A stretch of DNA of 64,000 nucleotides from assembly GCA_964622095.1 (NCBI GenBank), contig CAZUPP010000001.1:67393-131392 (forward strand), written 5' to 3'. The DNA is from an uncultured Verrucomicrobiales bacterium. GTDB lineage: Bacteria; Verrucomicrobiota; Verrucomicrobiia; Verrucomicrobiales; CAZUPP01. A model generated the notes under the pieces. It was given only the letters and a program-made list of their open reading frames with translations. It searched no databases and had not been told where the DNA came from. Shown one piece after another: positions 2,913 to 64,000 of the stretch (positions are counted from its first letter, which is position 1; every line of letters starts with the position of its first letter). The translations under genes and the position numbers were made by a program.

Positions 2913-5900
2913 CTAAGTCAAAGACGGATAGAAGGGGTCCTTCGGCATCAGCTGAGCTGCCCGGCTCAGGAAATAATTCACTTCCTCGGCTTTATCCAGC
3001 CGGCCGCGGCTTGCACTCTCCAGATGAAGGAGGGCGGCATGCGGGGTGTAGATTATCTTTAGCCCGTCCTCGCGCAGGCGCAAGCAGTAGTCGATGTCAT
3101 TGAATGACACGGCCAGATTGTTTTCGTCAAAGCCACCAGCTTGCAGAAATGCTTTTTTCCTCGTCAGCATGCAAGCCGCGGTGACCGCAGCAACTTGCCG
3201 CGTCAGGCCAGCCAACATCATGGGGCTCTCATAGGCCGATAGAATTCGCGTCCAGCAATGCGTCGCTCCTTTATCGCCCTGCACGGAAACACCCGCATGT
3301 TGGATCGTAAAATCTCCGTAGTGCAGTCTTGCTCCTACTGCGCCGACCTCAGCCCGCTGGCCGTGTTCCAGCATAGCGCTCAACCATTGTGGATCGGCTG
3401 CTTCCGTATCATTATTCAGAAAGAGCAGATACTCTCCGCGGGCTTCCTTCGCCGCCATATTATTCATTGCGGAAAAATTGAAATTGCCGGAATGCTTCAC
3501 GACGCGTAATTCTTCTTTCTCCAGATATTCCAGCGTTTCAGGCTTTTCGCTCTCATTATCAACCACGATGATCTCGTAGTTCTCGTACTCTGTAATCTCG
3601 CGAATTGATTGGATGCAATTGCGCAGTAATTCGACCCGGTCGCGGGTTGGGATAATGATCGAAACCAGATCACGTTCTACAATCGGCCGGGTCAGCCGAA
3701 AAGTATTTGGAAGAGGCGATGATTCGATCCTGGCCGGCAGCGCCTCTTTCTGCGAAATCCAACTAACGATCCATTCTTCCAGTAAAGTCCGGTATGATCT
3801 AGGCAGGACCAGGGGCTCTCTCCGCGTGATCGTCGGAATATCCACGCGACTTGGAGTTATCCCGTTCTCCCTTAATTTCACCAGCAGACAGGCGATCTGC
3901 CCTTCCGCGATCAATCGCCATACGCTGCTATCGTCATTTAAGAGATCCCGCTGAAACAGATAGCCTTCCCGCCAGCATGGGCTGGAGACAAAAAGATCAT
4001 CATCCCACTCCAGCGCTGGCTCCCAGGTTAGAGTATTATTTTCGACGACCGCTTCATGGCCATAGAGAACTCGCGTGTCCACATTTGCTTTAGCCGATAC
4101 GATTACTCCGGCGAGGAGCGCTTCGTCCACGAGGCATCCACTTCGCAAAGGAAAAATCCAATCCACGTCCCGGCATACCTTACGGCTCATTTCACGCAAG
4201 CCCTCCGCGTCACCGGGTGCGACACGATGAACCTGTTCGTCGTCATTCACATCGTGTGCTTCCGCCAGCACAATCAATGGACACGAGCCGCCTTCTATTA
4301 AAGCGTGAAGGCTATTGAGGGTTCTTTTTAGTTCTACCGGGTCGACCTGATTGTAGATAATAAAACCTACCCTTGCCAGATTTTGTCCCGCCTCCTTTAT
4401 CGCAGCGGCTTTCTTCTCACGAATCCGCACTCCAGAATCGATATCCACTTCAAGAAAGTGCTCCGAAACATCCCCGCCCGAAATGGTGTAGAGTTCCGTC
4501 AGTCGTTGCCGGGTTTTATCTAGCGCCTTCTGCAACGGACCATAGGGGATGACTTTACTCCCATCGCCTTTCATCTTCGCCTGCATAAACCGCGGCAAGT
4601 TCGCGGCCTTCCAACGCTTGCTCCTTGTCAGGCGATCCACGGATTGCTGAATTTCCGCGAGGCCTTTGGATAACTTAACCAGTCCCTTGTGAGTTTGTCG
4701 ACGCAGTTTCTGGAAGCGCCTCGCTGCGGCGTGGCCTGCGGAACTTGCCTCCGCCGCATGCTGGGTAGGCAGCCAGAAGACATCATTGACCCGGGTTGGA
4801 TGCGCCTGCGCCCACTGTTTATCATAGCTCGGCCCGTCTCCATGAGCTCCCTCCTGAAAAAGTGGTTTCGCTTCAAACTCCTCCCGAAAACAAGGTAGTT
4901 TTTCCCATTCATCAATCGCATCTTTGAGTCTTGCGTAAATATTTGGTGGTATGGAGTCGATACGTTCCTGTTTGACCTCATCGGAACCTATTTTGAAAAA
5001 ACGTTCCTCCCCGGCCTCCATGAAATCATATTCCGTCACATCCGCACTGATTAATCCACGGACCAGTTTATACTCTTCAGTTGTCGCGCATACGCTTCTC
5101 AGAAATGAATCATCCCCGATGATAATTCGCTCCTTGGGCTGTTCGGCTTGCGGTGGCCAAAGGACCTTTCCCTTCACGTCGGGAGGAACGTCGTATTCCA
5201 AAAACTTGCCCAGCGTAGGATAGACGTCCAGAAGAGAGACCGCGCCTCTGCTCTCTATCGTCTGCCTTGCTTCATAATTGCCGGGTAAGCGAAACATCAG
5301 TGGTACTCGAAAGACCGCTTCATGATCCAGGTGATGGTGAAACATCACCCCTTCCTCACCAAGGAGATTCCCATGGGGCGAAGTAAAGACGATCAGGGTA
5401 TCTTCATAAAGATTTCGTTGCTTTAAGCCTGCGATTACCTTGCCTATCTGGGCATCCAGATAGCGGACGGATGCATCAAAGCCGCGGTGAATGTAATCAA
5501 TTTCGTCAAAATCCTCCGGCCATGGCAGAATATTTTTCTCCGCCTCAATAAAGAATTCCTCCAGTTCAGAAAGCCATCCTGCCATTTCAGGGGTGACCTG
5601 GTCTGCTGCGACGCAGTCCAGCCTCACGCGCTCGAGCCATCCGCCAAACTCGTATCCCTCGAGCCCCCGGCGAAGTTTTGCTGGAGCGTGCGGCAATAAT
5701 TCGGCAATATCTGTCGCCATCACCGGTGCCCCTTGCAGATACGCTGCTGTTTTCTTAATCGTTCGATCCATTAAGGGTGGCCACTCGCCTCTGGATAAAC
5801 TGGTCTGCACAGACTGCAGGTGTGAGTAGGTTTCGATTCCCCGGATTTGCTCCACCGCGTTACGATCCCTTACCGGTCCCGCAGGGTTTGGCCGAAAATA

Positions 5901-6935
5901 TTCCTTCGGGACATGTGCTGGAGGATGAACATCAAAAAACTGCGTCCAGATAAACCAGGGTGTACTTTGAGGCATGCTGTCCAACTCTCTCAGAAGACGT
6001 CGTGCCATAATGCCTCCATCTTCGCTCGGATTGCCGTTGGACGGCACCACCTTATGAAACAGCCATTGAAACCCAGCCGCGGCCTGACCTGTATCGTGTT
6101 TCGATGGGAGAAAGAGTGTCCGGTAACCTTTCTCCGCGAGGGACAGCGGCATGGAGCGCACGTAGAGAGGCAAGCCATCCGTTTCCGTCAGCGCCCCGAG
6201 TTCTTTGGAGAAACGACCAGTCAGCAGCCCGCAATACGCACCTGTGGTATTGACATAACTCGTTCGTGCCTGCGGAAAGGACACGCTCTCCTCGCGCAGC
6301 GCGTCGATATGAGGTGTGCCGATCCGTTCGTTGTTCAGACAGTCCGCCCGCAAACCATCCGCCGTCAAAAGTAGCACGTTAGGTCTCGAAAACTTTCGTT
6401 CCTCCCAAACTTGGAGAAGTGGCGCTTTTTTTACGCGCACGCCCTGCAAAACTGGGTCACTCCATCCAGACCAGGCATGAGCGCCCGCGGCGAGCCCCTC
6501 ACTTCTTGTTTCAAAACGAAGAAAAAACTCCTCCCCTTTATCCACCTCCAACATCAATTCTACCTCATGCCAGAACCGGCTCTCATCTTTTCTCGGATCC
6601 AGCACATATTCCCAGATCAGTTCTTCGGCAATATCATTGCCAGTCCGTGAAAGAAATAATCGCATCCGCACCGTCCCAGGCATGCGCTTTCGAATCGCAG
6701 GTTTCAGACCCACTCCAAATTCCATCGTCGGCTGCTCTTTTTCAGTCAGCAGCTTGGGTGTGCGCACCGTAGACGGGGGATGCATGAACAGCGTCACCCG
6801 TGCATCCTGTTCCAGATTAAAATGCTGAATCTCAATGAACGAAGCCTCTGGTGACTTTCGCTCTGAGTCGCTAACAAAATCTATAAGATGGATTTCATTC
6901 ATATCTAATTTGATCCTTGACTGAAGTTTCTTCAT
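2913..6935 (-). CDS. Multidomain polysaccharide-modifying protein: N-terminal unknown region, sulfatase-fold (alkaline-phosphatase superfamily) domain, degenerate GT-A-like region, C-terminal family-2 glycosyltransferase
   Basis: The sulfatase-like N-motif is RPNVLLLTADGLRADCL...GTPHIDALREESVSFPQA, followed later by LIVFTSPHGNLLGEEG. The GT2 motifs are VSIIIPTRDRVELLRNCIQSI, EIIVVDNES and LLFLNNDTE. The ORF extends to 6974, but the Met at 6935 overlaps the upstream stop (TGATG), so I prefer 6935. Confidence 0.8.
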   Translation of the reverse strand: MKKLQSRIKLDMNEIHLIDFVSDSERKSPEASFIEIQHFNLEQDARVTLFMHPPSTVRTPKLLTEKEQPTMEFGVGLKPAIRKRMPGTVRMRLFLSRTGNDIAEELIWEYVLDPRKDESRFWHEVELMLEVDKGEEFFLRFETRSEGLAAGAHAWSGWSDPVLQGVRVKKAPLLQVWEERKFSRPNVLLLTADGLRADCLNNERIGTPHIDALREESVSFPQARTSYVNTTGAYCGLLTGRFSKELGALTETDGLPLYVRSMPLSLAEKGYRTLFLPSKHDTGQAAAGFQWLFHKVVPSNGNPSEDGGIMARRLLRELDSMPQSTPWFIWTQFFDVHPPAHVPKEYFRPNPAGPVRDRNAVEQIRGIETYSHLQSVQTSLSRGEWPPLMDRTIKKTAAYLQGAPVMATDIAELLPHAPAKLRRGLEGYEFGGWLERVRLDCVAADQVTPEMAGWLSELEEFFIEAEKNILPWPEDFDEIDYIHRGFDASVRYLDAQIGKVIAGLKQRNLYEDTLIVFTSPHGNLLGEEGVMFHHHLDHEAVFRVPLMFRLPGNYEARQTIESRGAVSLLDVYPTLGKFLEYDVPPDVKGKVLWPPQAEQPKERIIIGDDSFLRSVCATTEEYKLVRGLISADVTEYDFMEAGEERFFKIGSDEVKQERIDSIPPNIYARLKDAIDEWEKLPCFREEFEAKPLFQEGAHGDGPSYDKQWAQAHPTRVNDVFWLPTQHAAEASSAGHAAARRFQKLRRQTHKGLVKLSKGLAEIQQSVDRLTRSKRWKAANLPRFMQAKMKGDGSKVIPYGPLQKALDKTRQRLTELYTISGGDVSEHFLEVDIDSGVRIREKKAAAIKEAGQNLARVGFIIYNQVDPVELKRTLNSLHALIEGGSCPLIVLAEAHDVNDDEQVHRVAPGDAEGLREMSRKVCRDVDWIFPLRSGCLVDEALLAGVIVSAKANVDTRVLYGHEAVVENNTLTWEPALEWDDDLFVSSPCWREGYLFQRDLLNDDSSVWRLIAEGQIACLLVKLRENGITPSRVDIPTITRREPLVLPRSYRTLLEEWIVSWISQKEALPARIESSPLPNTFRLTRPIVERDLVSIIIPTRDRVELLRNCIQSIREITEYENYEIIVVDNESEKPETLEYLEKEELRVVKHSGNFNFSAMNNMAAKEARGEYLLFLNNDTEAADPQWLSAMLEHGQRAEVGAVGARLHYGDFTIQHAGVSVQGDKGATHCWTRILSAYESPMMLAGLTRQVAAVTAACMLTRKKAFLQAGGFDENNLAVSFNDIDYCLRLREDGLKIIYTPHAALLHLESASRGRLDKAEEVNYFLSRAAQLMPKDPFYPSLT

Positions 6936-8218
6936 CACCCCTTGCCCGTCACTTGCTCGACGAGCCGTAACCACTCGCTCAGGTTTCTTGAGAAAATAGG
7001 CGCCCGTTCAGGAAATAATTGGACCGGCCTGGGTGTTGCACCCTGCCTTTCCTGGATTACCGCCGCCATTGCGTCCGCCCAAGCCTTGGCGTCATCCGGT
7101 TTAACGAAGCGAATATGCGCTTGGTCGGCTTCGTTATATTCCTGCAGTTCCCGCAGCCCCGGCAGATCACTCATCAGTAAGGGTGCACCGCAGAGAATCG
7201 CGGATTTCGCAACCATCGTGCCGCTCTCGTGCCATTGTGAGGGCACTGCGACCGCCGAGCATTTTTGGATTTCTTTCCAGATCTGACGGTGCGGCACCGG
7301 ATCTTCAAGGCGTAATCGTGGATGCCTATGCGCTACTTCCTGGAGCTGAATATAGTCCTGCGACTTATTAGGCGTCATGATCATTCGGACCTGTATCCTT
7401 GGTGTTTCCGGGAGATAGCTTAGGGCCTCCGCCAGAATATTTGCGCCTTTCCAGGGAGCGGATGGGCCCACAAACAGCACCGAAGGCGGATCATCCGGCT
7501 CAACGGTTTCCATCTCGGGCTGCTCCCAGTCTTCGATCCGTGGTCCGTTTTCAATGAGCACCAGTTTTTCCGGTGGATATCCGTGCTCCTCCAGTAAAGA
7601 GCGGACCAGCCGCGTCAGCACAACAATATGCCGCGCCTTTTCAAAATTCTCCCGCATGGCGTCTGGACGGCGTGCCATCTTCGCCTTTATCTGCTCTTCA
7701 TTCGTTCCGTAAAAGCCGGGAAATCTCTGGGTCACACATCGCGTACACCAGTTTGGTTCTGGACCGTCACAGATCTGGCCATCCACCCGCCATAGCGTAT
7801 GCAGCGGACATAGCGCCCAAAAATCAGTCAATAAAGCGATCGCTGGGATTCCATGCCTCCGGCAAGTCTCAAAAACCGCCGTGGAATGCTTCAGGGCATG
7901 CGTCACGATGACTAAATCCGGCTGCTCCCGGTGCAGTTCTCGTTGGAGAAAAGAACACTGAAAATCTCCGCGCCACTCGCGTTCTGCCCCTTCTGCCGCC
8001 AGGGCCAGATTGAATCGGAGCTCCGCCACCGGTATGCCATCATATTCTCTGCGGGATACACCAAAGTCATGAAAGCGATTTCCGGGTACGTCCCGGAAAG
8101 TCCACACCCGCACCTGATGCCCCTCTTCAGCAAGCCCCTTCGCCAGCCAGTGGGTGTAATACTCTGTCCCTGCTGGAAAGTCCGGCAGATACTGGTGAAC
8201 CACAAATAAAACCGTCAT
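6935..8218 (-). CDS. Glycosyltransferase, GT4/GT-B fold
   Basis: The N-terminus MTVLFVVHQYLPDFPAGTEYYTHWLAKGLAEEGHQVRVWT is typical of GT4 enzymes. The C-terminal half (VLFVGPSAPWKG...VPSQWHESGTMVAKSAILCGAPLL) matches the Glycos_transf_1 E-x7-E region. It is translationally coupled to the downstream gene. Confidence 0.75.
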   Translation of the reverse strand: MTVLFVVHQYLPDFPAGTEYYTHWLAKGLAEEGHQVRVWTFRDVPGNRFHDFGVSRREYDGIPVAELRFNLALAAEGAEREWRGDFQCSFLQRELHREQPDLVIVTHALKHSTAVFETCRRHGIPAIALLTDFWALCPLHTLWRVDGQICDGPEPNWCTRCVTQRFPGFYGTNEEQIKAKMARRPDAMRENFEKARHIVVLTRLVRSLLEEHGYPPEKLVLIENGPRIEDWEQPEMETVEPDDPPSVLFVGPSAPWKGANILAEALSYLPETPRIQVRMIMTPNKSQDYIQLQEVAHRHPRLRLEDPVPHRQIWKEIQKCSAVAVPSQWHESGTMVAKSAILCGAPLLMSDLPGLRELQEYNEADQAHIRFVKPDDAKAWADAMAAVIQERQGATPRPVQLFPERAPIFSRNLSEWLRLVEQVTGKG

Positions 8219-8375: not shown

Positions 8376-8450
8376 TCCAGCGTAGCTCAGCGGTAGAGCA
8401 GGTGGCTGTTAACCACTTGGTCCTAGGTTCGAATCCTAGCGCTGGAGCCA
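8376..8450 (+). tRNA. tRNA-Asn (anticodon GTT)
   Basis: The cloverleaf is readable by eye. Acceptor TCCAGCG/CGCTGGA; D-arm GCTC-AGCGGTA-GAGC; anticodon arm GGTGG-CTGTTAA-CCACT (GTT); variable TGGTC; T-arm CTAGG-TTCGAAT-CCTAG; discriminator G; encoded CCA. Confidence 0.92.
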
Positions 8451-8621
8451 TTCTCCGCCCCTCTCTCCCCCTGTTCCGTCAGGCATCGGGGAATGGTTCC
8501 TTCCCACTTGACCTGGCGTGATTTGATCTTGCCATGGAGCGGCTACTTTGGCGACAGGCCGGGTCATTCCTTATGGAACTTTCACTTGCGCGAATATGCA
8601 ACTTTCGGTATATGCAGACTC

Positions 8622-8996
8622 GTGAAGGTTATCCAGGTTTACAAGTGTCTCTGTGACGAGTTCCGCCTGCGCATCCTGAATCTCCTCAAAGACGGGCCCT
8701 TATGCGTCTGTCATCTCATTGAGATTCTTGATTGTGACCAGGTCAGGATGTCCAAACAGCTCCGCTACATGAAGGAGCTCGGTATGGTCGAAGGCACGCG
8801 CCAGGCCCAGTGGATCGTCTATCGGTTGGCTGACCCCACCCATCCCATCCTCGCGGAGAATCTCAAGTGCCTCCAGGATTACACCCGAGAGCAATTCTAT
8901 TTCGCTGAAGATCTGCGTAAGCGGGCGCGCATTATCGAGCGCCTTGAGGCCTCCGGTGAGCCTTGCCCGGACCTCCTGAACGCCCCCGGAAAATAA
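8622..8996 (+). CDS. arsR: ArsR/SmtB-family metalloregulator
   Basis: Contains FRLRILNLLKDGPLCVCHLIEIL with the CVC As(III)-binding motif, plus a wHTH (MSKQLRYMKELGMVEGTRQAQWIVYRL). The ORF opens at 8493, but the GTG at 8622 gives the usual length of about 124 aa. Confidence 0.8.
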   Translation: MKVIQVYKCLCDEFRLRILNLLKDGPLCVCHLIEILDCDQVRMSKQLRYMKELGMVEGTRQAQWIVYRLADPTHPILAENLKCLQDYTREQFYFAEDLRKRARIIERLEASGEPCPDLLNAPGK

Positions 8997-9087
8997 GTCC
9001 AGATCCGCGCCTCTCCCTCCACCCGCCGCTCATCATTTTCTTTTCCTCATCTAACCTCCATAAACACCAGCCCCGCCACCTGCCACC

Positions 9088-9789
9088 ATGAAACCCGCCA
9101 TCTCATCCATCTTCATCCCTGCCCTCGCCATGATCACTGCAAACGGCGCCATCTCGGCTCCCTTGGATATTCTGGAAACGTTGCACCCCACCGTGATGCA
9201 GGTCACCTCTGAGTTCGACCAGATTCCCGCTGAACGCCAAGGTGAACTGAAAAAAATCGCCTTGGCCGTTCGCTCAAAAATTGAAGCCGGCGAAGAACCG
9301 CAACTGACTTTTATCTGCACCCATAACAGCCGGCGCAGTCATATGAGCCAAATCTGGGCCCAGACCGCGGCCGCCTACTATGGTGTGCCAGATGTCAAAA
9401 CCTTCTCGGGCGGCACCGAAGCGACCGCCTGCAATCCTCGCACCGTGCGTGCTCTGCGCCGGGCCGGTTTTTCGGTCGTCAATTCGACTCCCCAGGCGGA
9501 TAATCCTCACTACCTGGTTCAATATAGTGACGCCTCCGCCCCTCTCGAAGCATTTTCCAAAGTTTATCATAAAGACGGAAATCCCGAATCTGATTTCATC
9601 GCCGTCATGACTTGCTCTGATGCGGACGAGAATTGTCCCATCGTCAAAGGCAGCCTCCTGCGCGTCGCCATCCCTTATGTTGATCCCAAGGTATCTGACG
9701 ACACCGATAAAGAAGACGCCACCTATGACGAACGCTGCCACCAGATCGCCCGGGAAATGTGTTACCTCATGTCTCAGGTCAAAAACTGA
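9088..9789 (+). CDS. arsC: LMW-PTP-family arsenate reductase (thioredoxin-coupled ArsC type) with a roughly 70-aa N-terminal extension
   Basis: The P-loop is LTFICTHNSRRSHMSQIW (C-X5-R). The distal Cys pair in VMTCSDADENCP matches the B. subtilis-type C82/C89 relay. The gene sits within an ars cluster. Confidence 0.75.
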   Translation: MKPAISSIFIPALAMITANGAISAPLDILETLHPTVMQVTSEFDQIPAERQGELKKIALAVRSKIEAGEEPQLTFICTHNSRRSHMSQIWAQTAAAYYGVPDVKTFSGGTEATACNPRTVRALRRAGFSVVNSTPQADNPHYLVQYSDASAPLEAFSKVYHKDGNPESDFIAVMTCSDADENCPIVKGSLLRVAIPYVDPKVSDDTDKEDATYDERCHQIAREMCYLMSQVKN

Positions 9790-9887
9790 ATAACCCTCGG
9801 CTCGACGGCGGCCTTCCAGTTTCCTTGATCAAAAATTAATCAAATTAATTCCGAATCCCGACATCGCGCCCATCAACTTCGTTAATC

Positions 9888-10721
9888 ATGAAAGACGTCA
9901 CTTCTGCTGAAGATGCCATAGCTCCAAACACGGATACGCGGGATCTTGTTCGGGAAAAGTATGCTGACATCGCTCGGGGCGAATCAAGCTGTTGTGGCAA
10001 GCGCACCGCGGCATCTACCTACGCCGAAGTCGGGGAGGATTACGCGGCCATTGATGGCTACGTTCCTCAAGCCGATCTCGGATTGGGTTGCGGGGTTCCT
10101 ACGGAATTGGCCGGGATGAAACCGGGCCATACCATCCTCGACTTGGGCGCCGGCGCGGGAAATGACGTTTTCATCGCCCGGCGTGTCGTCGGCGATTCTG
10201 GCCGGGTCATTGGTGTGGATTTTACGCCGGAAATGATTGCAAAAGCCGAAACCAACCTCGCCAAGCTCGGCTACCGCAATGTCGAGTTTCGTCAGGGCGA
10301 AATTGAAGACTTACCTGTATGCGATTCCGTGATTGACGTGGTTATCTCTAACTGCGTCCTCAATCTGGTGCCGGACAAAGCAAAGGCCTTTTCTGAGATC
10401 TTCCGTGTGCTCAAGCCGGGCGGACACTTTTGCGTTTCGGATATTGTTCTTGAAGGCCTTCTGCCGGAGAAAATCCGGACCGCCGCGGAGTTTCACGTTG
10501 GTTGCGTGGCCGGCGCCATGCAGAAAAAGGACTACCTCAGCACCATCCAGGCTCAGGGTTTTGCAGCCATTGAAATTGTGAAATCCCGCGCGATTCATAT
10601 TCCCGATCAGGATCTGCTCGAGCACCTGACCTCCGATGAACTCGCCGCTTTCCGCGCTTCAGGCACCCATATCCTCAGCGTCACCGTTCGGGCCAGTCGC
10701 CCTGCAACTCAATCTGCCTGA
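9888..10721 (+). CDS. arsM: Arsenite S-adenosylmethionine methyltransferase
   Basis: Contains VREKYADIARGESSCCG, DLGLGCGVPTELAGMKPGHTILDLGAGAGNDVF (SAM motif I), NCVLNLVPDK and FCVSD. This is the conserved ArsM Cys set and methyltransferase fold. Confidence 0.85.
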   Translation: MKDVTSAEDAIAPNTDTRDLVREKYADIARGESSCCGKRTAASTYAEVGEDYAAIDGYVPQADLGLGCGVPTELAGMKPGHTILDLGAGAGNDVFIARRVVGDSGRVIGVDFTPEMIAKAETNLAKLGYRNVEFRQGEIEDLPVCDSVIDVVISNCVLNLVPDKAKAFSEIFRVLKPGGHFCVSDIVLEGLLPEKIRTAAEFHVGCVAGAMQKKDYLSTIQAQGFAAIEIVKSRAIHIPDQDLLEHLTSDELAAFRASGTHILSVTVRASRPATQSA

Positions 10722-10954
10722 ACGCTCAGGGTTTATTCCGTTTTTCCTCAATCATGTGACCAAGCGAGCGAGAGCGTCCCCGCTCTCCGTTATAACCACG
10801 GAGCGAACCAAGCCACTCGCACATCACTTGGCTGACCATACCAGTCGTTGAAGGCGTGATCAGCCAGATCATTCCATGCCGGAGAGAGGGTAGGGCGCAT
10901 TCTCCCCATAGGCTGTAATCACAAAAGTAGGCGCTGCCCCCAGCCAGACAAGAA

Positions 10955-11081
10955 GCCACATTCATCTGCGATGAACGAACGTTCATTCTTGGTGCGCCCG
11001 ACACTCCCGCCTCGGCCCGACCCCGCACCCCATCTTTTTTCTCTTTTTTGTCGCCCGAACGTTCCGGACGTCCCGGACGTG
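10955..11081 (-). repeat. Intergenic structured element, copy B (inverted relative to copy A at 52859-52991)
   Basis: On the minus strand it reads ACGTCCGGG ACGTCCGGA ACGTTCGGG, an A-tract, a G-rich spacer, then GAACGTTCGTTCATC-GCA-GATGAATGTGGC. It shares 18-nt and 13-nt identical blocks with copy A. Confidence 0.5.
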
Positions 11082-11329
11082 TCGCGTCCCTCTTTTTCTT
11101 GAGGTAGGTTATACATAGAGGAAGGAAAACCATCCATGGCATGGGCGATGATGATCTCTCGCTTCAGCCGCCTTCTTCCATCCCCATGCCGGCAGTCTCT
11201 CTCACCCCACATCAAGCCCATTTTACCTTTCGGTCAAACCATCGCCAGCTCCTTACTCCCTCATTCTCAACCATCAAAGCAGATGGATTTTTTTCTGTTT
11301 TACCGAATGTTCGGTAAAATGCGCCGCCC

Positions 11330-12490
11330 ATGAATCCCCTCTTCCTCCTTCAGGCTGTCTCCTTCTTCCGGGTATTGGGTGACAGCATGATGGCTCTGGC
11401 CTTGCCTTGGCTCGTCCTGCAATCCAGCGGCAGCGTTTTCTTCACCGGCGCGGTCGCATCCGTCGGGTTGAGCGCCACCTTTCTGGGCGCTCTTTTCAGC
11501 CCATGGATCATGCGTCGGATCGGCTTGCAGGCGTCGATCCTCCTCAGCCTTGGGGCCAGCCTCGCTGGTATTGCCGGTCTCGCCTGGTGTTTTGCCCAGC
11601 CCACCCTCCCGATTGTGGCCCTCTTTCTCTTTGTCCCTCTGGATCGTGGCCTTGATGCCACTGGCAACATCGCCCTGGAAAGCCGGTTCCCTGAGATCGC
11701 CCGTTGCTTCATGGTCAATCTCTCCAGCCTCAATGCCATCAAAGAAAGCCTCGCTCTCGGGGCCATGACTCTTGGCGCTGCCGCGGCGGGAGCCCTGCTC
11801 GCCGCTGCTCCTGGCGCGACCACCCTTCTCTCTGCCGCAGCTCTTACTCTGCTCACCCTCCTTCTCTTTCTCCCCTTATCCCGGCTTTACCGCACCACCC
11901 GGCGGCGATTCATCCCTCCACCTCTCGGGCAAACCGCTCTCTGGCTGTGGCGTCACAAAAAGCTGCGCTCTCTGGTCATTCTTTTGCTCGTGGTCATGGC
12001 CAGCCTTGCGGGGCTGGATGACATCGTGCTCCCCGCCTACATCGAATCGGCCAGCGGCAACCCGGTTCATCTCGGCTGGATTCTCGCGGCCTACGCTATT
12101 GCCGCGCTGATCAGTTCCCTCGCTTACGCCCACTACGCGGCCATGCTTCATCCCGCCCTGCTTATCCGCACCGGCGTCATCGGCGTCGCCCTCTTTTTTG
12201 CCGGCCTCGCTCTGGGTCTGCCGATTCTGCCTATGCTCATCCTCACCTTTCTCAGCGGCCTTCTCTCAGGTGCCCTCGGTCCGGTCATCGATACCAGTTT
12301 CCTGCTGGAGACCCCTAAGATTCATCGCACCGGCATGTTGACCGCCCTGAATCTCCTCGTCACCGGCAGCGCCCCTCTCACCGTCATCCTCTACGCCACG
12401 CTGATCGATCTGACCTCCGTTTCTGTCTTCGGGACCCTCGCGACCGGTATGATCCTGCTCACCTTGCTCCTTCCTTTGCCCAAAAAATGA
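11330..12490 (+). CDS. MFS transporter
   Basis: 386 aa with about 12 hydrophobic helices. The N-terminus LLQAVSFFRVLGDSMMALALPWLVLQ is typical of the MFS_3/EntS-like group. Confidence 0.8.
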   Translation: MNPLFLLQAVSFFRVLGDSMMALALPWLVLQSSGSVFFTGAVASVGLSATFLGALFSPWIMRRIGLQASILLSLGASLAGIAGLAWCFAQPTLPIVALFLFVPLDRGLDATGNIALESRFPEIARCFMVNLSSLNAIKESLALGAMTLGAAAAGALLAAAPGATTLLSAAALTLLTLLLFLPLSRLYRTTRRRFIPPPLGQTALWLWRHKKLRSLVILLLVVMASLAGLDDIVLPAYIESASGNPVHLGWILAAYAIAALISSLAYAHYAAMLHPALLIRTGVIGVALFFAGLALGLPILPMLILTFLSGLLSGALGPVIDTSFLLETPKIHRTGMLTALNLLVTGSAPLTVILYATLIDLTSVSVFGTLATGMILLTLLLPLPKK

Positions 12491-18544: not shown

Positions 18545-19006
18545 TTAATCTTTTTTCTCTTCCGTCGCCGGTTCGGCGTTGCTTTCCACGACTTCGACTG
18601 CCTCGACCGTGCCCGGGGCATCCACCCACTCAATGTAGGCCATGGCCGCGGAGTCTTCATAGCGATTCGGCAATTTCAAAATGCGCGTGTAGCCGCCCTG
18701 ACGATCTTTTGCTGCTGGTGCGATTTCTTCAAAGAGTTTGCGCAGGTGATCCACCCGCTTGCCGTCCTTCAGGCGCTTCCAGTGGGCATTCTGACGAAGA
18801 CGCGCTTTAACCAGGCGGCGTGCGTGGACGCTGTCTTTCTTCGCAATCGTGACGAGTTTTTCGACAAACGGCCGCAAAGCTTTCGCGCGAGCCTGCGTCG
18901 TGCAGATACGCTCATGCTCAATCAGGCTGCACGCCAGATTGGCCAGCATCGCTTTGCGGTGGTCAGCCGTGCGGCCGAGTTTTTTGGTTTTGTTTTTATG
19001 GCGCAT
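18545..19006 (-). CDS. rplQ: 50S ribosomal protein L17
   Basis: Starts MRHKNKTKKLGRTADHRKAMLANLACSLIEHERICTTQARAKALRPFVEKLVT. It has an acidic C-terminal extension. Confidence 0.95.
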   Translation of the reverse strand: MRHKNKTKKLGRTADHRKAMLANLACSLIEHERICTTQARAKALRPFVEKLVTIAKKDSVHARRLVKARLRQNAHWKRLKDGKRVDHLRKLFEEIAPAAKDRQGGYTRILKLPNRYEDSAAMAYIEWVDAPGTVEAVEVVESNAEPATEEKKD

Positions 19007-19037
19007 GGGCGTCGTGCTCGAGGCGGTTGAAAGTTAC

Positions 19038-20165
19038 TTACTCGTTATTGGCAGAAATCAGTCCCACGTCGGCCTGCGGCTGCGGATCAATCAAGCCCGG
19101 CTCGAACTTCATGCCAAGAGTCAGGTTCAATTGAGCCAGCTTATCTTTGATTTCGTTAAGAGATTTTTTCCCGAAATTCCGATATTTCAGCATCTCGGCT
19201 TCCGTCTTCATGGCCAGTTGTCCCACCGTCGTGATATTTGCGTTATTCAGGCAATTGGCTGCGCGTACGGAAAGCTCGATTTCATTCACGCTCATATTGA
19301 GCAGCTTCTTGAGCTTGCTGTTTTCCTGGCTGGCCTGCTGCGGAGCCCGGTCAAATTCCACCTGATTATCGTCATAGTTAACAAATACATCCAGGTGGTG
19401 GCGCAGAATCGCGCTGGCCTGCAAGAGCGCGTCATGCGGAGAAATGCGTCCGTCCGTCCAGATATCCAGGTGCAGCGCGTCGTAGTCTGTCCGCATCCCT
19501 ACGCGGGTCTGGGTCACGCTGTATTTAACGCGGGTGACCGGGGAAAAAATGGAATCGATCGGGATAATACCAATCGGCATGTCCGGGCGCTTATTTTCAT
19601 CACCCGTGTTAAATCCGCGGCCTTTCCGGACCTCCAGCTCCATCTCAAAGCGCTGTTTCTTATCCAGCGTGCAGATGAGCTGATCTTTATTCACCACCTC
19701 GCAAGCCTCGCTGTCCTTGATGTCTGCCGCGGTGACCGGACCTTCCTTTTCGACATCGATCTGGAGGGTGCGCGGTTCGTGGTCGACCGCCTTAAATTTC
19801 ACCTTTTTCAGGTTCAGAATAATGTCCACCACATCTTCTGTCACCCCATCAAGAAGGGCAAATTCATGGTCCGCGCCTTCGATCCGCACCGCCGTGATCG
19901 CGGCGCCTTCCAGACTGGAGAGCAGCACGCGGCGCAGACTGTTACCGACGGTATGACCATAGCCTTTCTCAAACGGCTCTGCCGTGAAGCGCGCGAAGGT
20001 GTCCGTCGCGCCTTCCTCATGCTTGATCAGGCTGGTAGGCATCTCAAAACGCCCCAGCTTCACCGCATTGGATGACGCGCCGTTCTCATTCTCTACGATT
20101 TCTTCCGTTGCCGCAGCCTCTGCTGCGACCGCTTCCGCGGCGGCTTTTTTTGCTTTTTCAGCCAT
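19038..20165 (-). CDS. rpoA: DNA-directed RNA polymerase alpha subunit
   Basis: Contains FTAEPFEKGYGHTVGNSLRRVLLSSLEGAAITAVRIEG and the C-terminal domain ELSVRAANCLNNANITTVGQL. It is followed by rplQ. Confidence 0.95.
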   Translation of the reverse strand: MAEKAKKAAAEAVAAEAAATEEIVENENGASSNAVKLGRFEMPTSLIKHEEGATDTFARFTAEPFEKGYGHTVGNSLRRVLLSSLEGAAITAVRIEGADHEFALLDGVTEDVVDIILNLKKVKFKAVDHEPRTLQIDVEKEGPVTAADIKDSEACEVVNKDQLICTLDKKQRFEMELEVRKGRGFNTGDENKRPDMPIGIIPIDSIFSPVTRVKYSVTQTRVGMRTDYDALHLDIWTDGRISPHDALLQASAILRHHLDVFVNYDDNQVEFDRAPQQASQENSKLKKLLNMSVNEIELSVRAANCLNNANITTVGQLAMKTEAEMLKYRNFGKKSLNEIKDKLAQLNLTLGMKFEPGLIDPQPQADVGLISANNE

Positions 20166-57923: not shown

Positions 57924-59528
57924 TCAGTAGATATCTTTTTTCGGCGCGTCTGGATTGGGCGCGTGGCGCTCCTGGGCCTCACCCAATACCTGCTCGACGG
58001 CGATCGGTTTTTTTCCGATCATCGCGGTCAGACCTGCCGCGGTAAGGGTTTCGAATTTCTCACCCAGATTTTTTTCCAGGCTGGTTGCGTGGAAGGCTTT
58101 GCTCTGCACGTACTCCGTCCGGAAAAGCGCGAGGAAAAGGTCTGCGGAGAAAACCGCGAGCAGCCACATACTGCCCAGGACACCGACAAAGAAACTGATG
58201 ATCTGATAAGGCTCCAGGTTGAGCTCCTCCATCTCAAGGATGTTCGTTCCAATAAAGACGATGCCCACCAGATTAGCGATCGCGGAGAAAAGCCGGGCTT
58301 GCTGGACTATCGGTCCCAATTCTTCCGCGCTGTGAGGCCGGAGAACATCTTTTGCGCGGAATATATAGATCAGTGGCGCGGCCGTGATGCAAAGCATGCC
58401 CACGAGAATGCCGAGATTTGCTCCGATCTGATTGAGAAAGATCGTGATGACAAACATGGAGAGCGCGTAGATCGGCGCGAAAATCGCCACGAGCCAGCCG
58501 GGAGCGGGAGATTCCGGCAAAAGCACCTTTAAGGCCATGGCAGAACGGATCGTGCCGGGGAAAATCGCGATGACCTTGGGGCCAAGAATCGAAAGATAGG
58601 TCAGCCCAAAGGCCAGCCCCATGATCATGGTCATCTGTTTCGCCATTTCCGGATCGTCGATCTGACTGAAATCAACCAGCACACTGGCAGGAACCAGGCC
58701 GATGAGCATCGGGACGAAAAGCAGGACGAGCCACGCGCTGCGGGCCAGGAAGCGCGAGCGCAGAATGTTATGCCAGAACTTGGCCGCGTTCATGATGAGG
58801 ATGATGCCGATCATCTGGACAATCGTCAGCGTCCACGTCACGCCATCGATGGTTTCCATGTTGTCCCGGCCAAAATTCTTCACCTGTTCATCAACCAGGG
58901 CTTCGACTTGGCTGTCGTCCACCTCCATGCCAAGGGCGGCCTGCGCGACGGCGATTTGCTGGTCAATCTGGGCCTGCTGATTCTCCAGCAGTTGGGCCTG
59001 ATATTCATTGCCCATGCTCCGGTAATACTGAATCTGCTGATCATACTGCTCGGAGGTCTGCTCGAGCTGATTGAGCTGCTGACGGTATTGCTGAGTCTGG
59101 CCTCCATCTGCCATCGCTTCGCGCTGCTGCTCCATGGCGGTCTCAAAGGAGGCACGCAAACCTTCCCGGTACTGGGTTTCAAAGTCTTTGTAGTTGGCCA
59201 GAGAAAGGAGTAAACCGATCGTCAGCATGATCCCTGAGCCCCAGAGAAGCGCCTTCCGCCAGGCCGCGTAGTTCTGGACGAGCGGTTCGCTTACCCCCGC
59301 GCTCTCCAGCTTGGCCCGTTCTCCATCAGTCAGGGTATCTTTGCGGAATCCGCCTACAAAGGCTCGCAGGGCGGCCCTTTGAATCTGAAGACCGATGTCC
59401 TGGGCGCGTGATTTCGCGAGGTCCGCGGCTGCTCCGGCCATCTTTGCGCCGGACTCTTTGATGGAGCCTGGCTTGCCGCCGTTGCCGTTGTCGTTGGGGG
59501 GTCCCTTGTCGTTCTGATCTCCGCTCAT
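57924..59528 (-). CDS. Hypothetical multi-pass membrane protein with Gln-rich coiled-coil loop
   Basis: 534 aa. After the first TM comes QQYRQQLNQLEQTSEQYDQQIQYYRSMGNEYQAQLLENQQAQIDQQIAVAQ, then about 8 further TM helices. I recognised no family. It lies 55 nt downstream of 59584-60342 on the same strand. Confidence 0.6.
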   Translation of the reverse strand: MSGDQNDKGPPNDNGNGGKPGSIKESGAKMAGAAADLAKSRAQDIGLQIQRAALRAFVGGFRKDTLTDGERAKLESAGVSEPLVQNYAAWRKALLWGSGIMLTIGLLLSLANYKDFETQYREGLRASFETAMEQQREAMADGGQTQQYRQQLNQLEQTSEQYDQQIQYYRSMGNEYQAQLLENQQAQIDQQIAVAQAALGMEVDDSQVEALVDEQVKNFGRDNMETIDGVTWTLTIVQMIGIILIMNAAKFWHNILRSRFLARSAWLVLLFVPMLIGLVPASVLVDFSQIDDPEMAKQMTMIMGLAFGLTYLSILGPKVIAIFPGTIRSAMALKVLLPESPAPGWLVAIFAPIYALSMFVITIFLNQIGANLGILVGMLCITAAPLIYIFRAKDVLRPHSAEELGPIVQQARLFSAIANLVGIVFIGTNILEMEELNLEPYQIISFFVGVLGSMWLLAVFSADLFLALFRTEYVQSKAFHATSLEKNLGEKFETLTAAGLTAMIGKKPIAVEQVLGEAQERHAPNPDAPKKDIY

Positions 59529-59583
59529 GGCGGGCGAAGCCTAAGGGAGGAGAAAAGGGAAAGTCGACCGAAAAGGGCCGGAA

Positions 59584-60342
59584 TCACCTGCCTGCCGCAT
59601 GGGCCGCTTTCTCTTCCCAGACCCTCCAGCGAGGCGCAAACATGAATTTGCGCAGGAGCCGTTCAGCCCGCTCAGTTCCGAAGGCGCTCGTGAGGAAGCG
59701 CCGACCCTGGCTGCCCGCGTAGCGTTCATCCAGGAAGTCTCCTGCCGGGTCCGGTAAATCGAGCCTGAACGCATTTCCCGCAGGTGCAGGCATTCGCTGA
59801 AACCACCGGATGACGTAATCCCGCATCAGCTCAATCAATTCCCGGGTCACTCCGTGGTCTGGTGTGCGGGCAAAAAAAGGGATGGAACGGTGCGCCGCGC
59901 TGATTACCTCCGGGCCGCCCTCCAGCGCCAGATCCACTCCACCGGCCGCGGCGCGGTGATGCAGGTCCGCCCCCATTGATCCCGCTACCTTGCGGGCATC
60001 TTCATGCCCCGCCACACTTGGAAAATCCGCGTAGATCACCCGGGCCGTTTCTCCAAACATCACCAGCTCGATTTCCAGGCCCGGCCATGATTTCGCATCA
60101 GCGGGCAGACCCAGGATGGAACAGATTGAGACGCGTGGACTTTCGATCAGGACCAGCCGGCACGCTGCCTCGTCCTTGCGCCGGAGTGCTTTGAAGACCA
60201 GCCGCGCCGCACCGCTCCCGTCCATCTGCGCAATTTCCCTCACGACCGGCAGCTCATAAAACTTCGCGCCCAGCGCCATGGCAAAAGCCTGCCGTGCGAT
60301 CAACCCCGGTGAAAGCGGACGGCTGGAGGCGGTGACTGACAT
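59584..60342 (-). CDS. Ferredoxin-dependent bilin reductase (FDBR/Fe_bilin_red)-like protein, divergent
   Basis: Comparison by eye with PcyA recalled from memory. CRLVLIES corresponds to FRKMHLEL, SICSILGLP to DILHCVMFP, VIYADFPS to AIADLSP, IPFFARTP to CLFIRPS, and the C-terminal RRFLTSAFGTERAERLLRKFMFAP to [23 protein letters not shown]. The length of 252 aa fits the family. Confidence 0.45.
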   Translation of the reverse strand: MSVTASSRPLSPGLIARQAFAMALGAKFYELPVVREIAQMDGSGAARLVFKALRRKDEAACRLVLIESPRVSICSILGLPADAKSWPGLEIELVMFGETARVIYADFPSVAGHEDARKVAGSMGADLHHRAAAGGVDLALEGGPEVISAAHRSIPFFARTPDHGVTRELIELMRDYVIRWFQRMPAPAGNAFRLDLPDPAGDFLDERYAGSQGRRFLTSAFGTERAERLLRKFMFAPRWRVWEEKAAHAAGR

Positions 60343-60539
60343 CAGCCAACAGTGTAGCAGCCATCGAACTGAAAAAGAATCGGGAATGGCATGCCAAGCG
60401 GGAATTGACTGGCAGATCTTTGCTCCGAAGGATTAGCTTTTTGAGCGCGCACTTGAGACCAGCCGTCTTCAATGCCGCGACCTGAATCTCACCTCACAAT
60501 TTTCACGCCCAGAAAAACGCACCTGCTTGCCCACACATT

Positions 60540-62153
60540 ATGACCGCATCTCCAAATGAGCTTTGGCACCGCTTAAATGAATATTTCCTGCGCTACGAAG
60601 ATCTCGGGATTTCCCTGGATGTAAGCCGGATGAAGTTTCCCCGGGAGTACATCAGCAATCTCCAGCCGAAGATCGAGCAGGCTTTTGCCGCGATGAAAGA
60701 GCTGGAATCCGGCGCCATCGCCAACCCCGATGAAGGCCGGCAGGTAGGTCATTACTGGCTCCGGGCCCCGGAACTCGCCCCCAGTGACGAGCTGCGCAAA
60801 GAAATTATTGGCCCGCGCGATGGCATCCGTGATTTCGCCGCGCGAGTCCGGAATGGTGAGATTCACGCGGAAGGCCAGCCTTTTACTGATGCCGTCATCG
60901 TCGGCATCGGAGGTTCAGCGCTCGGTCCTCAGCTCACGGACGACGCCCTCCGTTCTCATGCGGACTGTCTCAAGCTGCACTACCTTGATAACACGGATCC
61001 GGACGGCATCGACCGTTTGCTCAGCGAGATCGAACCGCGTCTTGCCACGACCATGGTCGTGGTCATTTCCAAATCCGGCGGCACGAAAGAAACGCGCAAC
61101 GGCATGCTGGAGATGGAACAGGCCTATAAAATGCGCAATCTCGCGTTCGCTCCCCGCGCCGTCGCGGTTACCGGTCCGGGCAGTCAGCTCGACCAGTATG
61201 CGGAGTCCCATGGCTGGCGGGCGCGTTTTCCCATGAGCGATTGGGTGGGAGGCCGGACCTCGGTCATGAGTTCCGTCGGGTTGCTGCCCATGGAACTGCA
61301 GGGATTAAATACGGGGAACTTTCTCGCTGGTGCCGCGGCGATGGACGAAAAAACCCGGCAGAATAATCTTTGGGATAATGCCGCCATGCTGCTGGCGGTG
61401 ATGTGGCACTACGCCGGAAATGGACGCGGTGAGAAAGACATGGTGGTGCTGCCCTATAAAGACCGGCTGGTTCTTTTCAGTAAATACCTTCAGCAACTGG
61501 TCATGGAAAGTCTGGGCAAAGAAAAGGATCTGGATGGAAATGTGGTGAATCAGGGTATCGCTGTCTACGGCAATAAAGGATCGACCGATCAGCATGCCTA
61601 TGTGCAGCAACTCCGTGAAGGCGTAAATAATTTCTTCGTCGTCTTTATTGAGGTCCGGAAAGACCGCCACACCGCCAGCTTTGAAGTGGAAGAGGGCGTC
61701 ACCTCCGGGGATTATCTGCAGGGTTTTCTGCGGGGAACACGAGCCGCCCTTTATGAAAACAACCGGGAAAGTGTGACCATCAGCCTGCCGCGGATGGACG
61801 CTTTTAACCTCGGGGCGCTGATTGCGCTTTTTGAACGGGCCGTCGGTTTCTACGCAACGCTCGTCAACGTCAATGCCTACCATCAGCCCGGAGTCGAGGC
61901 GGGGAAAAAAGCTGCGACACGCCTTCTGGAATTACAGAAGCAGGTTATCGAAGTGCTTCAGGCCACCAGCGGTGAATCTCTCACGGCGGATGATGTGGCC
62001 TGGAGAATCGGTGAGCGCGGAGGCTCGGCCAGCGCGGAAGATGTCTACCACACCCTCGTTCATCTCAGTGAGAACCGCACCAGCTTTACGGCGGATTATT
62101 CCAGTGACGGTACCCCGAAAAATGACCGGTTTAAATATTTGCCGGTGACTTAA
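60540..62153 (+). CDS. pgi: Glucose-6-phosphate isomerase
   Basis: [43 protein letters not shown] and [12 protein letters not shown]. Confidence 0.95.
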
Positions 62154-64000
62154 TCAGTTCGCTGGGTCGCGTTCTCTTCCGCCAGCACTTCCGCGACGGC
62201 TGCTGTCACCTCGCTGACCGTGATTGCTTTCATGCATTCCATGTCAAAGGGACACTCCCGCAGGAAGCACGGGCTGCAGGGTATGTGATGCCGGATAATC
62301 CGGTGACCACGCCCGGGTGGCCGGGTCAGAGAAGGCTCCGTCGAGCCGAAAAGCGCGATGGTCGGTACGCCCAGCCATCCGGCCAGATGCATGGTCCCGG
62401 TGTCATTACTCACCAGCAGACGGCATTCCCGCAGGCGATGGATAAGTCCTTCCAGGTTTGTCTGGCCGATCAGATTTTCTACCCGGGCAGCCGGCAGACT
62501 TCCTTCGATCATTGCGCCGATTTCCGTATCTTTCGGCACGCCGAAAATTCGCCACGTGATTTCGGGATATAATTCCGCAATTCGAGCGGCCAGCTCCGCA
62601 AATCGTTCGGGAAACCAACGCTTGGTCGCGCCGTACTCCGCTCCCGGACATAGACCCAGGATGATTCTCGATTCACCATTCGCGGCTGACCTTGGTGAGG
62701 ATGACAGTCTTTCTTTCAGAAGTCCTTCAACCTTCGCTCCGCAGCGTTTGGCCAGGCGAAGATATTTCTCGGCATGATGCTCGGGCGGGCCGGGTTTTTC
62801 CTTTCGCTCTCTTTCCGGAATAATCTGATTCAGGAACCAGCGGCGGTTGTGCCCGGGAAAACCGATTCTGCGCGGAATACCTGCGAGAAATACCTCCAGA
62901 GCGCTGCGTAAAGAATTCGGGAAAAGCACCGCGACATCAAACTGGCCCGCTTCACGGATCCGTTTGGCGACCTGCGCCGGCTTTTTCTGATCTGGCGAAA
63001 TGGCGATTACTTCATCGGCGAGCGTTGCTTCGCGCCAGAAACCCGCCAGTTTTTCCGGAGAAAGGATCGTCACATGAGCATCCGGGCGGCCCCGGCGAAA
63101 AGCTTCCATCGCCGGAGCGCTCATCACGGCATCACCCAGCCAGTTTGGTGATCGAAGTAAAATACGGAAAGGTTGCAGCGGTTCACGCATGGATTCCGGC
63201 GGCAAAAAAATCCCACGCTTGTAACGGTCGAGCAGAAAATTAGGCTTGGGAGCTTTCCAGCGGTTATGGACCCAGAACCAATCTTCCGGCTGGTGCCGGA
63301 TGGCAGCCTCCAGCGCCTGCGTGAGCCGGTAATCGATTTCTTCGGCGCTGAGTTCATTTGGACCGCAGATTTTTGTATAGTTTACCGCCCACCGGCCGGC
63401 TTTTACGGTTCGCATTCCGGCAAATGCCACGATCGTTTCATTGTGCGTCGCCAGAATCCCTGGCAGGGGTGAAGTGGAGGCGAGGCGGTTGAAAAAAGGC
63501 AGCCACCTTCCCTGGTCGCCCGCGTGTTGGTCGATGAGAATGCCGACGCCATCACCGCGCTTCAAAATGGTATTGGCTTTGCCCATTTCCCGCCCACGTT
63601 CAATCGCGATCAGTCCGCGGCGCGAACGCGTGCGCCGGATATGCTGGTCAAACGCTTTCCCCCGCAGGCGCTGATAAACAAATGAACCGGTGTTGCCGGT
63701 GTAAATGTGGGTGGCTTGGGAAAACAGTTCCCATAGAGACAAGTGGGAAACACCCAGAACGCTGCCCAGCTCGCGCGGATCAGCCTCAGTTTTCGGATAA
63801 GGTCCGCCTTCCAGGGAAACCAGTTTTTCGATCTTTTCCGGGCGCATCGATTCAATGCGCAGGCCGCTCAGCATATTTGCGCCCAGCCGGCGGAAATGCC
63901 GGCGGCAAAGCTGTCGCCGTTCTCTTTCTGAGCGCTCCTCATCCGGAAATGCGATGCGTAGATTGCGCATGGCCAGCGTCCGGTAGCCGGGCAGGAGAAA
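62150..64000 (-). CDS. Fused LpxL/HtrB-like lipid A late acyltransferase (N-terminal, 5' end outside window) and GT9 heptosyltransferase (WaaF-like, C-terminal)
   Basis: The frame stays open upstream of the Met at 63970 to the window edge ([19 protein letters not shown]). Acyltransferase part: VSHLSLWEL (H-x4-E) and [20 protein letters not shown]9 part, from about 63172 down: [33 protein letters not shown] and [26 protein letters not shown]. Confidence 0.8.

Follow-up and report, generated by a model that had tools for sequence, protein, structure and literature searches.

Does a heterotrophic member of the Verrucomicrobia encode a working ferredoxin-dependent bilin reductase (FDBR), and if so, of which kind? 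The question is raised by a 252-codon open reading frame (ORF) in a 64,000-nucleotide stretch of bacterial DNA, here called the window. An earlier note on this DNA regarded FDBRs as enzymes of phototrophs and their phages, and hence saw the gene as out of place. This part of its argument has been overtaken by the literature of 2023 and 2026: pre-PcyA FDBRs (Pre-1 to Pre-3) have been reported from bacteria that do not photosynthesize, Planctomycetes and Verrucomicrobia included (PMC10151467, PMC13446030), and examples of Pre-1 include MCC5789364, from an Opitutales MAG, and POZ53557, from Methylovulum psychrotolerans (Rockwell et al., 2023, PMC10151467; Frascogna et al., 2026, PMC13446030). Because such pre-PcyA enzymes of heterotrophs, Verrucomicrobia among them, are published and partly characterized, the headline claim is not new. 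An FDBR outside the phototrophs has ceased to be a novelty, and this one is real but mostly expected.

The gene and a second candidate start within it are as follows.

59584..60342, minus strand: coding sequence of the FDBR homologue, 252 aa, an ATG-to-stop ORF with its stop codon at 59584-59586
60277..60279, minus strand: internal ATG (Met22), the start in some gene callers, giving a 231-aa product, P0001 (residues 22-252)

The 252 codons are free of stops, with a GC content of 63%. Two gene-calling sources annotate the ORF at 59584-60342, and the 252-aa form is recorded in NCBI (P0036), on a 354-kb contig. Met22 is probably not the true start. In an AlphaFold model of the full-length protein, residues 12-25, which lie upstream of and span Met22, form an N-terminal helix (pLDDT of about 90 for the block), and the same residues align with the N-termini of relatives. 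Because of this confidently modelled helix and alignment we prefer the 252-aa long form, and all residue numbers refer to it. Every motif quoted in the earlier note (ACRLVLIES, SICSILGLP, LEIELVMFG, VIYADFPS, IPFFARTP and GRRFLTSAFGTERAERLLRKFMFAP) is found in this product. The same protein was found in four sequencing runs, and no SNP within the gene is among the differences, at ~0.1% of sites, between the window and contigs of three runs.

The gene looks like a long-resident, native one. Its codon usage correlates with that of the rest of the window at r=0.80, a mid-range value on which we reject recent horizontal transfer. Its GC content is raised (z=1.9), with the excess coming from codon positions 1 and 2, because the protein is rich in Ala, Gly, Arg and Pro (40.5% of its residues). 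The host itself is, judging from a PurL at best 67% identical to those of Chthoniobacter, Chthoniobacterales and Spartobacteria MAGs, a Verrucomicrobium to which no species representative is close.

Is the protein an FDBR at all? When the single protein was used for searching, PF05996 (Fe_bilin_red) was the sole Pfam family to turn up, in a collinear position over the C-terminal 35 residues, and its 12.5 bits (E=0.11) do not reach the gathering score of 31 bits that sets membership by the Pfam profile. NCBIfam and PDB sequence searches gave noise only, with spurious or sub-threshold matches to an M20 peptidase and to designed ankyrin repeats. A word-indexed homologue search of 5.8 billion clusters returned the protein itself and nothing else, and no relative came out of a scan of the GTDB species genomes. 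When 1.84 billion representatives were searched exhaustively with phmmer, nine other proteins were recovered at E<=1e-3. Eight are near full-length FDBRs (E 1e-6 to 9e-4, identity 21-29%), and the ninth, P0009, is a low-complexity false positive. Seven of the eight FDBRs score above the PF05996 gathering cutoff, with P0002 falling narrowly below it at 28.3 bits. The query is a singleton, its closest identity being about 28% among ~15 billion proteins.

In profile comparisons, nearly the whole protein proves homologous to bona fide FDBRs. The query alone aligned to a 7-sequence FDBR profile with a probability of 99.1% (hhalign, E=9.7e-19, 210 columns), and an HMM built from 22 relatives, with the query left out, scored the ORF at E=3e-24 across HMM positions 17-227 of 232. 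The same HMM matched none of the other 654 ORFs of the window (655 in total). Since seven of the eight relatives pass the Pfam cutoff and the profile methods tie the query to them, the PF05996 miss reflects the sensitivity of the model. The whole-length collinearity with FDBRs that had been claimed by eye is far beyond chance in the phmmer, hhalign and query-free HMM results alike. On these comparisons, the 252-aa ORF is a real gene and a true FDBR homologue.

Structure prediction agrees. Modelled from its single sequence, the protein gave a poor AlphaFold result (pLDDT 38); with a 9-sequence alignment, the AF2 model reached a pLDDT of 77 and a pTM of 0.80. In a Foldseek search of the PDB with this model, the 44 significant or top matches were all FDBRs or red chlorophyll catabolite reductases (RCCRs). 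PebA (2x9o) came first (E 1.1e-8, TM 0.74/0.79), followed by PcyA, PebB, PebS, HY2 and then RCCR; the FDBR matches span E 1e-8 to 2e-5, and the RCCR matches are significant at about 1e-5, the FDBR matches being about 1000-fold better. The protein is thus predicted to adopt an alpha/beta/alpha sandwich with a central antiparallel sheet, like PcyA, PebA and PebS, a result that is not fully independent of sequence homology because the AF2 alignment consisted of FDBRs. The earlier note had named, as the outcome that would speak against it, a PF05996 E-value above 1e-3 together with no PcyA-like match in Foldseek. The first half of this was seen (E=0.11) and the second was not, since PebA, PcyA, PebB, PebS and HY2 were all matched; as the test is conjunctive, the FDBR reading stands. 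With the PurL match to Chthoniobacterales MAGs, the homology evidence bears out the proposal of a divergent FDBR family member in a PVC heterotroph.

Which FDBR lineage the protein belongs to can be approached through its active site. We aligned the query and its relatives (MAFFT) with Synechocystis PcyA, identical to PDB 2D1E chain A. In this alignment PcyA Glu76 corresponds to Val64 of the query, and four further positions are the following.

60118..60120, minus strand: codon of Ser75, the equivalent of PcyA His88; Asn in 20 of the 22 relatives
60067..60069, minus strand: codon of Glu92, the equivalent of PcyA Asp105 and Pre-1 Glu91
60025..60027, minus strand: codon of Asp106, the equivalent of PcyA Asp119; invariant in all FDBRs aligned (26-sequence alignment)
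59710..59712, minus strand: codon of Ser211, the equivalent of PcyA Asp220 and HY2 Asp256

The published Pre-1 signature consists of Glu at the Asp105 position, Thr or Asn at the His88 position and Ser or Thr, typically Ser, at the HY2-Asp256 position (PMC13446030, Table 2), with nothing conserved at the Glu76 position (PMC13446030). For example, MCC5789364 has Ala63/Asn74/Glu91/Ser202 (PMC13446030), and enzymes of the Pre-2 and Pre-3 kinds have Asp at the PcyA-Asp105 position (PMC13446030). The query's V64/S75/E92/S211 fits the Pre-1 signature: Glu92 occupies the Asp105 position, where we predict that it serves as the central acid of the active site, and Val64 and Ser211 are of the Pre-1 kind at the Glu76 and HY2-Asp256 positions. 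At the His88 position the query likewise has a small polar residue, although Ser75, a conservative variant of Thr, differs from the Asn or Thr of Pre-1. Like Pre-1 enzymes, the query has the FDBR fold, a length in the range of about 230-250 aa and a non-photosynthetic host from a group, the Verrucomicrobia, in which they occur. It also keeps the conserved motif positions P80, P87, D106, W180, G213, F221-G222 and F233, and the PGR and FG core motifs.

This alignment changes how the substitutions are read. Of the residue equivalences given in the earlier note, His88 to Ser75 and Asp105 to Glu92 hold up, and the retention of Glu76 does not: the Glu it took as kept is E67, which aligns with PcyA Lys79, and the true Glu76 equivalent is Val64. 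The PcyA catalytic triad Glu76/His88/Asp105 is accordingly Val64/Ser75/Glu92 in the query, with all three proton-relay positions changed and not two of the three as had been counted. Nor do the substitutions hint at new chemistry, as had been suggested. They are ordinary, published features of Pre-1, and a Pre-1 enzyme with such a signature is active. What they do argue against is synthesis of PCB (18-vinyl reduction), which is not expected of the query because all three PcyA catalytic residues differ. Otherwise the likeness to Synechocystis PcyA (2D1E) is one of fold (Foldseek E about 1e-7, TM about 0.67) and of whole-length collinearity, with PcyA Asp119, the RPx motif and the C-terminal FG...F helix conserved in the query, whereas identity over the aligned columns is only 13% and the changes E76 to V64, H88 to S75 and D105 to E92 set the two proteins apart.

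In a neighbor-joining (NJ) tree computed from 219 columns with 300 bootstraps, the query and Glu-type metagenomic FDBRs form a clade (98.7%) that excludes PcyA, PebA and PebB. Within this clade, its grouping with P0002 and P0005 is weak (53%). The best explanation of these results is that the query is either a pre-PcyA enzyme of the Pre-1 lineage or a branch next to that lineage, an assignment that rests on signature and context because the tree, which is NJ and not ML, was built without named Pre-1/2/3, PcyX or RCCR reference sequences. The other FDBR classes resemble the query in particular respects. PebA is the best structural match, and the A-ring reduction carried out by HY2 and PebB is the type of reaction that we propose below; yet PebA and PebB fall outside the query's clade, and the Glu and Ser of the query at the D105 and D256 positions are both Asp in PebA, PebB, PebS and HY2. 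RCCR (2zxk/3aga) has the superfamily fold in common with the query and is also ferredoxin-dependent, but its weaker fold match, the lack of an RCCR Pfam hit and a set of sequence relatives that are all PF05996 proteins distinguish it.

Among its own relatives, the query stands out by its rate of change. Its distance from the ancestor of the clade is 1.57, whereas the 22 relatives have a median of 0.90 and reach 1.08 at most, so that its branch is about 1.7 times the length of theirs; given these values, the long branch fits relaxed or changed constraint. Four positions that are invariant in 22 of 22 relatives are replaced in the query alone (Q to P108, W to V146, P to Q212 and W to R225), and the Trp lost at R225, in the C-terminal helix, is also present in PcyA, PebA and PebB. 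Ahead of the PGR motif, HH has become ER. Strongly conserved positions of the family are nonetheless kept at 24 of 44 sites, the same share as in P0002, whose gene belongs to a canonical cluster. Against the relatives found, the query thus differs by an identity of about 28% at most, a score below the PF05996 threshold, a longer branch, four lost invariants and, as described next, its gene context. It is a relative of the Pre-1 bilin reductases that evolves fast and stands alone.

The surroundings of the gene are laid out as follows.

57924..59528, minus strand: downstream gene for a multi-pass membrane protein, 534 aa, with about 8 hydrophobic segments in the hydropathy profile
59529..59583, minus strand: spacer of 55 nt to the downstream gene, with only a weak terminator-like hairpin
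60343..60539, no strand assigned: divergent intergenic region of 197 nt, common to the gene and pgi, the presumed promoter region
60540-62153, plus strand: pgi, identified as PGI by domain assignment
62150-63970: LpxL-heptosyltransferase II fusion, the neighbour of pgi

As the only hairpin of the spacer is a weak one, co-transcription with the downstream gene is possible (the terminator scan gave 4 sites where chance alone would give 3.1), and the 534-aa membrane protein is a possible operon partner of the FDBR homologue. It matched no family in Pfam or NCBIfam. Its only close homologue is P0012 (58% identity), on the 5.6-kb contig L084, where a divergent WD40 gene lies upstream and no FDBR gene is called. 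The linkage is therefore not conserved, since this sole related contig has the WD40 gene instead. No match to the sigma-70 consensus was found in 60343..60539, and no Rfam element or riboswitch lies near the gene. The neighbours on the other strand include a response regulator and a dCache/HAMP/PAS hybrid histidine kinase.

The relatives of the query have another context. That of P0002 is kinase-FDBR-HO-Fer2-V4R, and that of P0005 is MerR/B12 beside FDBR-HO-Ser/Thr kinase-Fer2-V4R-75 aa-phycobiliprotein-like globin. A cluster of heme oxygenase (HO), Fe-S protein, V4R and globin is the Pre-1/Pre-3 context of Rockwell et al. (2023, PMC10151467), and in having nearest relatives within HO/Fer2/V4R/BBAG clusters the query again resembles Pre-1. 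The query itself is different. The typical, though not strictly defining, Pre-1 cluster of HO, Fe-S protein, two V4R proteins and a BBAG globin is absent from the 64-kb window: Pfam assignment of essentially all ORFs in 1-64000 found no heme oxygenase, V4R, Fer2/ferredoxin, globin/phycobiliprotein or GAF/phytochrome, and phmmer searches with the relatives' own cluster proteins found no match among window ORFs of at least 50 aa. Both searches agree with the earlier note, which had seen no heme oxygenase, phytochrome/GAF, phycobiliprotein or globin gene in the window. The partner-free span covers 59 kb on one side of the gene and 3.6 kb on the other. With so little visible on that side, and as the Pre-1 clusters in the literature are in some cases dispersed over the genome (PMC10151467), the partners may sit elsewhere in it.

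Based upon this homology, fold, residue pattern and context, we infer a substrate, a product and partners by analogy. The most likely function is that of a still-functional Pre-1-type reductase converting biliverdin to phytochromobilin, and we put the probability of Pre-1 affiliation and activity jointly at roughly 0.55. Biliverdin IXalpha would be made by a heme oxygenase whose gene lies in another part of the genome, and would occupy the pocket that has the central antiparallel beta-sheet on one side and the C-terminal helices on the other. Two single electrons would be supplied by a [2Fe-2S] ferredoxin, and protons would arrive via Glu92 and nearby hydroxyl residues or water. The diene of the A-ring would then be reduced, yielding phytochromobilin, probably the 3E isomer by analogy with the characterized Pre-1 enzyme, and the product would be passed to a bilin-binding acceptor encoded elsewhere. 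The analogy draws on MCC5789364, an active Pre-1 enzyme that converts biliverdin to 3E-phytochromobilin (PMC13446030). In this enzyme E91Q flips the stereochemistry of the product with turnover kept (PMC13446030), and a D91N variant of Pre-2 also stays active; given these two variants, the family tolerates change in the active site.

Divergence on this scale has a second, less probable explanation that we take seriously, namely that the protein is a relic or a re-purposed FDBR fold. Activity would have been lost after separation from the cluster, and the protein would either be decaying slowly or have a non-catalytic tetrapyrrole-binding or regulatory role, possibly acting with the downstream membrane protein. 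The longer branch, the lost invariants, among them the C-terminal helix's pan-FDBR Trp (W to R225), the singleton status, the partner genes missing from the window and the sub-threshold Pfam score would all fit such a history, and single substitutions in a Pre-3 enzyme suffice for binding of heme and protoporphyrin IX. Yet 252 intact codons with native codon usage make a long-dead gene unlikely, and the protein retains Glu92, the invariant Asp106 and the PGR and FG motifs, with a conservation score equal to that of P0002. The activity of the Pre-1 E91Q and Pre-2 D91N enzymes indicates that change at the active site is tolerated, and the split clusters published for Pre-1 weaken the argument from absent partners.

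A step beyond relic status, and unlikely, is that the FDBR-fold protein has left the HO/globin pathway for a new role in which a different tetrapyrrole is bound or reduced. Candidates could include scavenged bilins, chlorophyll catabolites and cyclic tetrapyrroles of the kind known from engineered Pre-3 variants, perhaps with the participation of the orphan 8-TM membrane protein. If true, this would be a natural case of a shift in ligand specificity so far known only from laboratory mutants.

It is quite improbable, in our estimate, that the protein is an active reductase with another substrate or regiochemistry, acting on imported bilins, on algal or cyanobacterial chlorophyll catabolites in the manner of RCCR, or on some other linear tetrapyrrole. 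Under this reading no cognate heme oxygenase would be needed, in keeping with the absence of HO from the window, although, for a genome of several Mb, not finding HO in 64 kb carries little weight. Pocket-lining positions are changed (S75, ER for HH, Q212 and R225), and the FDBR family is known for plastic regiospecificity. RCCR structures are significant fold matches (E about 1e-5), but the FDBR structures match about 1000-fold better and PF05996 is the only Pfam family found. The adjacent membrane protein matches no known family, and the one related contig does not preserve its linkage to the gene. That the ORF is not a gene, or resembles FDBRs by chance or composition, might be read from the Pfam E-value of 0.11, the single-sequence pLDDT of 38, the 40.5% of Ala, Gly, Arg and Pro and the low-complexity P0009 among the phmmer matches, but is effectively refuted by hhalign (E 1e-18), Foldseek and the query-free HMM (E 3e-24), with almost full-length alignments, eight independent full-length FDBR matches, conservation at the level of motifs (P80, P87, D106, W180, G213, F221-G222 and F233) and annotation by two gene-calling sources.

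What is new here is a modest addition: an extreme, singleton, cluster-detached, Pre-1-like offshoot that standard Pfam annotation misses. Interest in it is moderate to low unless biochemistry brings out a new ligand or role. For the family, the locus indicates that threshold-based annotation under-counts the real diversity of FDBRs, and it is a natural case in which to ask how far the bilin-reductase scaffold can change in sequence, and whether such proteins turn to other tetrapyrrole ligands after parting from their heme oxygenase and BBAG partners. Both questions bear on current work concerning the plasticity of the ancestral FDBRs.

Gene callers differ over where the FDBR-like gene starts within 60277-60342 on the minus strand: in the Logan assemblies the product is 231 aa long and begins at Met22, and in the NCBI record it is 252 aa long. 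Most of the predicted N-terminal helix would be lost in the shorter form. The genes on either side are as follows:

57924-59528, minus strand, 534-aa membrane protein, with the FDBR-like gene 55 nt upstream
60540-62153, plus strand, glucose-6-phosphate isomerase, divergent from the FDBR-like gene
62150-63970, minus strand, single 606-aa ORF, LpxL-like plus heptosyltransferase II

The 534-aa protein has a first hydrophobic segment at residues 92-112 and about seven more within residues 227-469, separated by a Gln-rich stretch (approximately residues 113-226) that is probably a coiled coil. Searches of Pfam and NCBIfam matched it to no family, and only three homologues, distant or rare, were found among 5.8 billion clusters. 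For the glucose-6-phosphate isomerase, the NCBIfam equivalog PRK14096 is a very strong match (795 bits), and the other PGI models score far lower (PRK00179 among them, 254 bits). In the 606-aa ORF beyond it, an LpxL-like domain of the lipid A lauroyl acyltransferase type, missing roughly the first 57 positions of its profile, is fused with a domain of LPS heptosyltransferase II (TIGR02195, 187 bits). It is unusual for two enzymes of LPS core and lipid A to be joined in this way.

Further features lie elsewhere in the window:

2913-6974, minus strand, 1353-aa ORF with a sulfatase/phosphodiesterase-type domain (residues 198-590) and a family-2 glycosyltransferase domain (residues 1105-1320)
8376-8450, tRNA-Asn, just upstream of the following gene run
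8493-12490, plus strand, genes for an ArsR-type HTH regulator, a low-molecular-weight phosphatase-like (ArsC-like) protein, a SAM methyltransferase (Methyltransf_31) and an MFS transporter
18849-20075, plus strand, 408-aa ORF opposite rpoA (RNA polymerase alpha; 19038-20165, minus strand)

The run at 8493-12490 resembles a cluster for resistance to, and methylation of, arsenic or metalloids. With near certainty, the 408-aa ORF antisense to rpoA, which has no family match, is a shadow ORF that does not code for protein.

Among metagenomic relatives of the FDBR-like protein, all three with visible context (P0002, P0003 and P0005) come from an FDBR cluster that adjoins or includes a gene for a Ser/Thr protein kinase. 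The kinase-associated loci are:

L086:3-500
L087:1014-1832
L088:2831-4189

Besides the kinase, L088 carries a MerR/B12-binding regulator divergently upstream. The presence of these kinase and regulator genes may represent a signalling link for the sub-clade of pre-PcyA clusters that holds P0002, P0003 and P0005.
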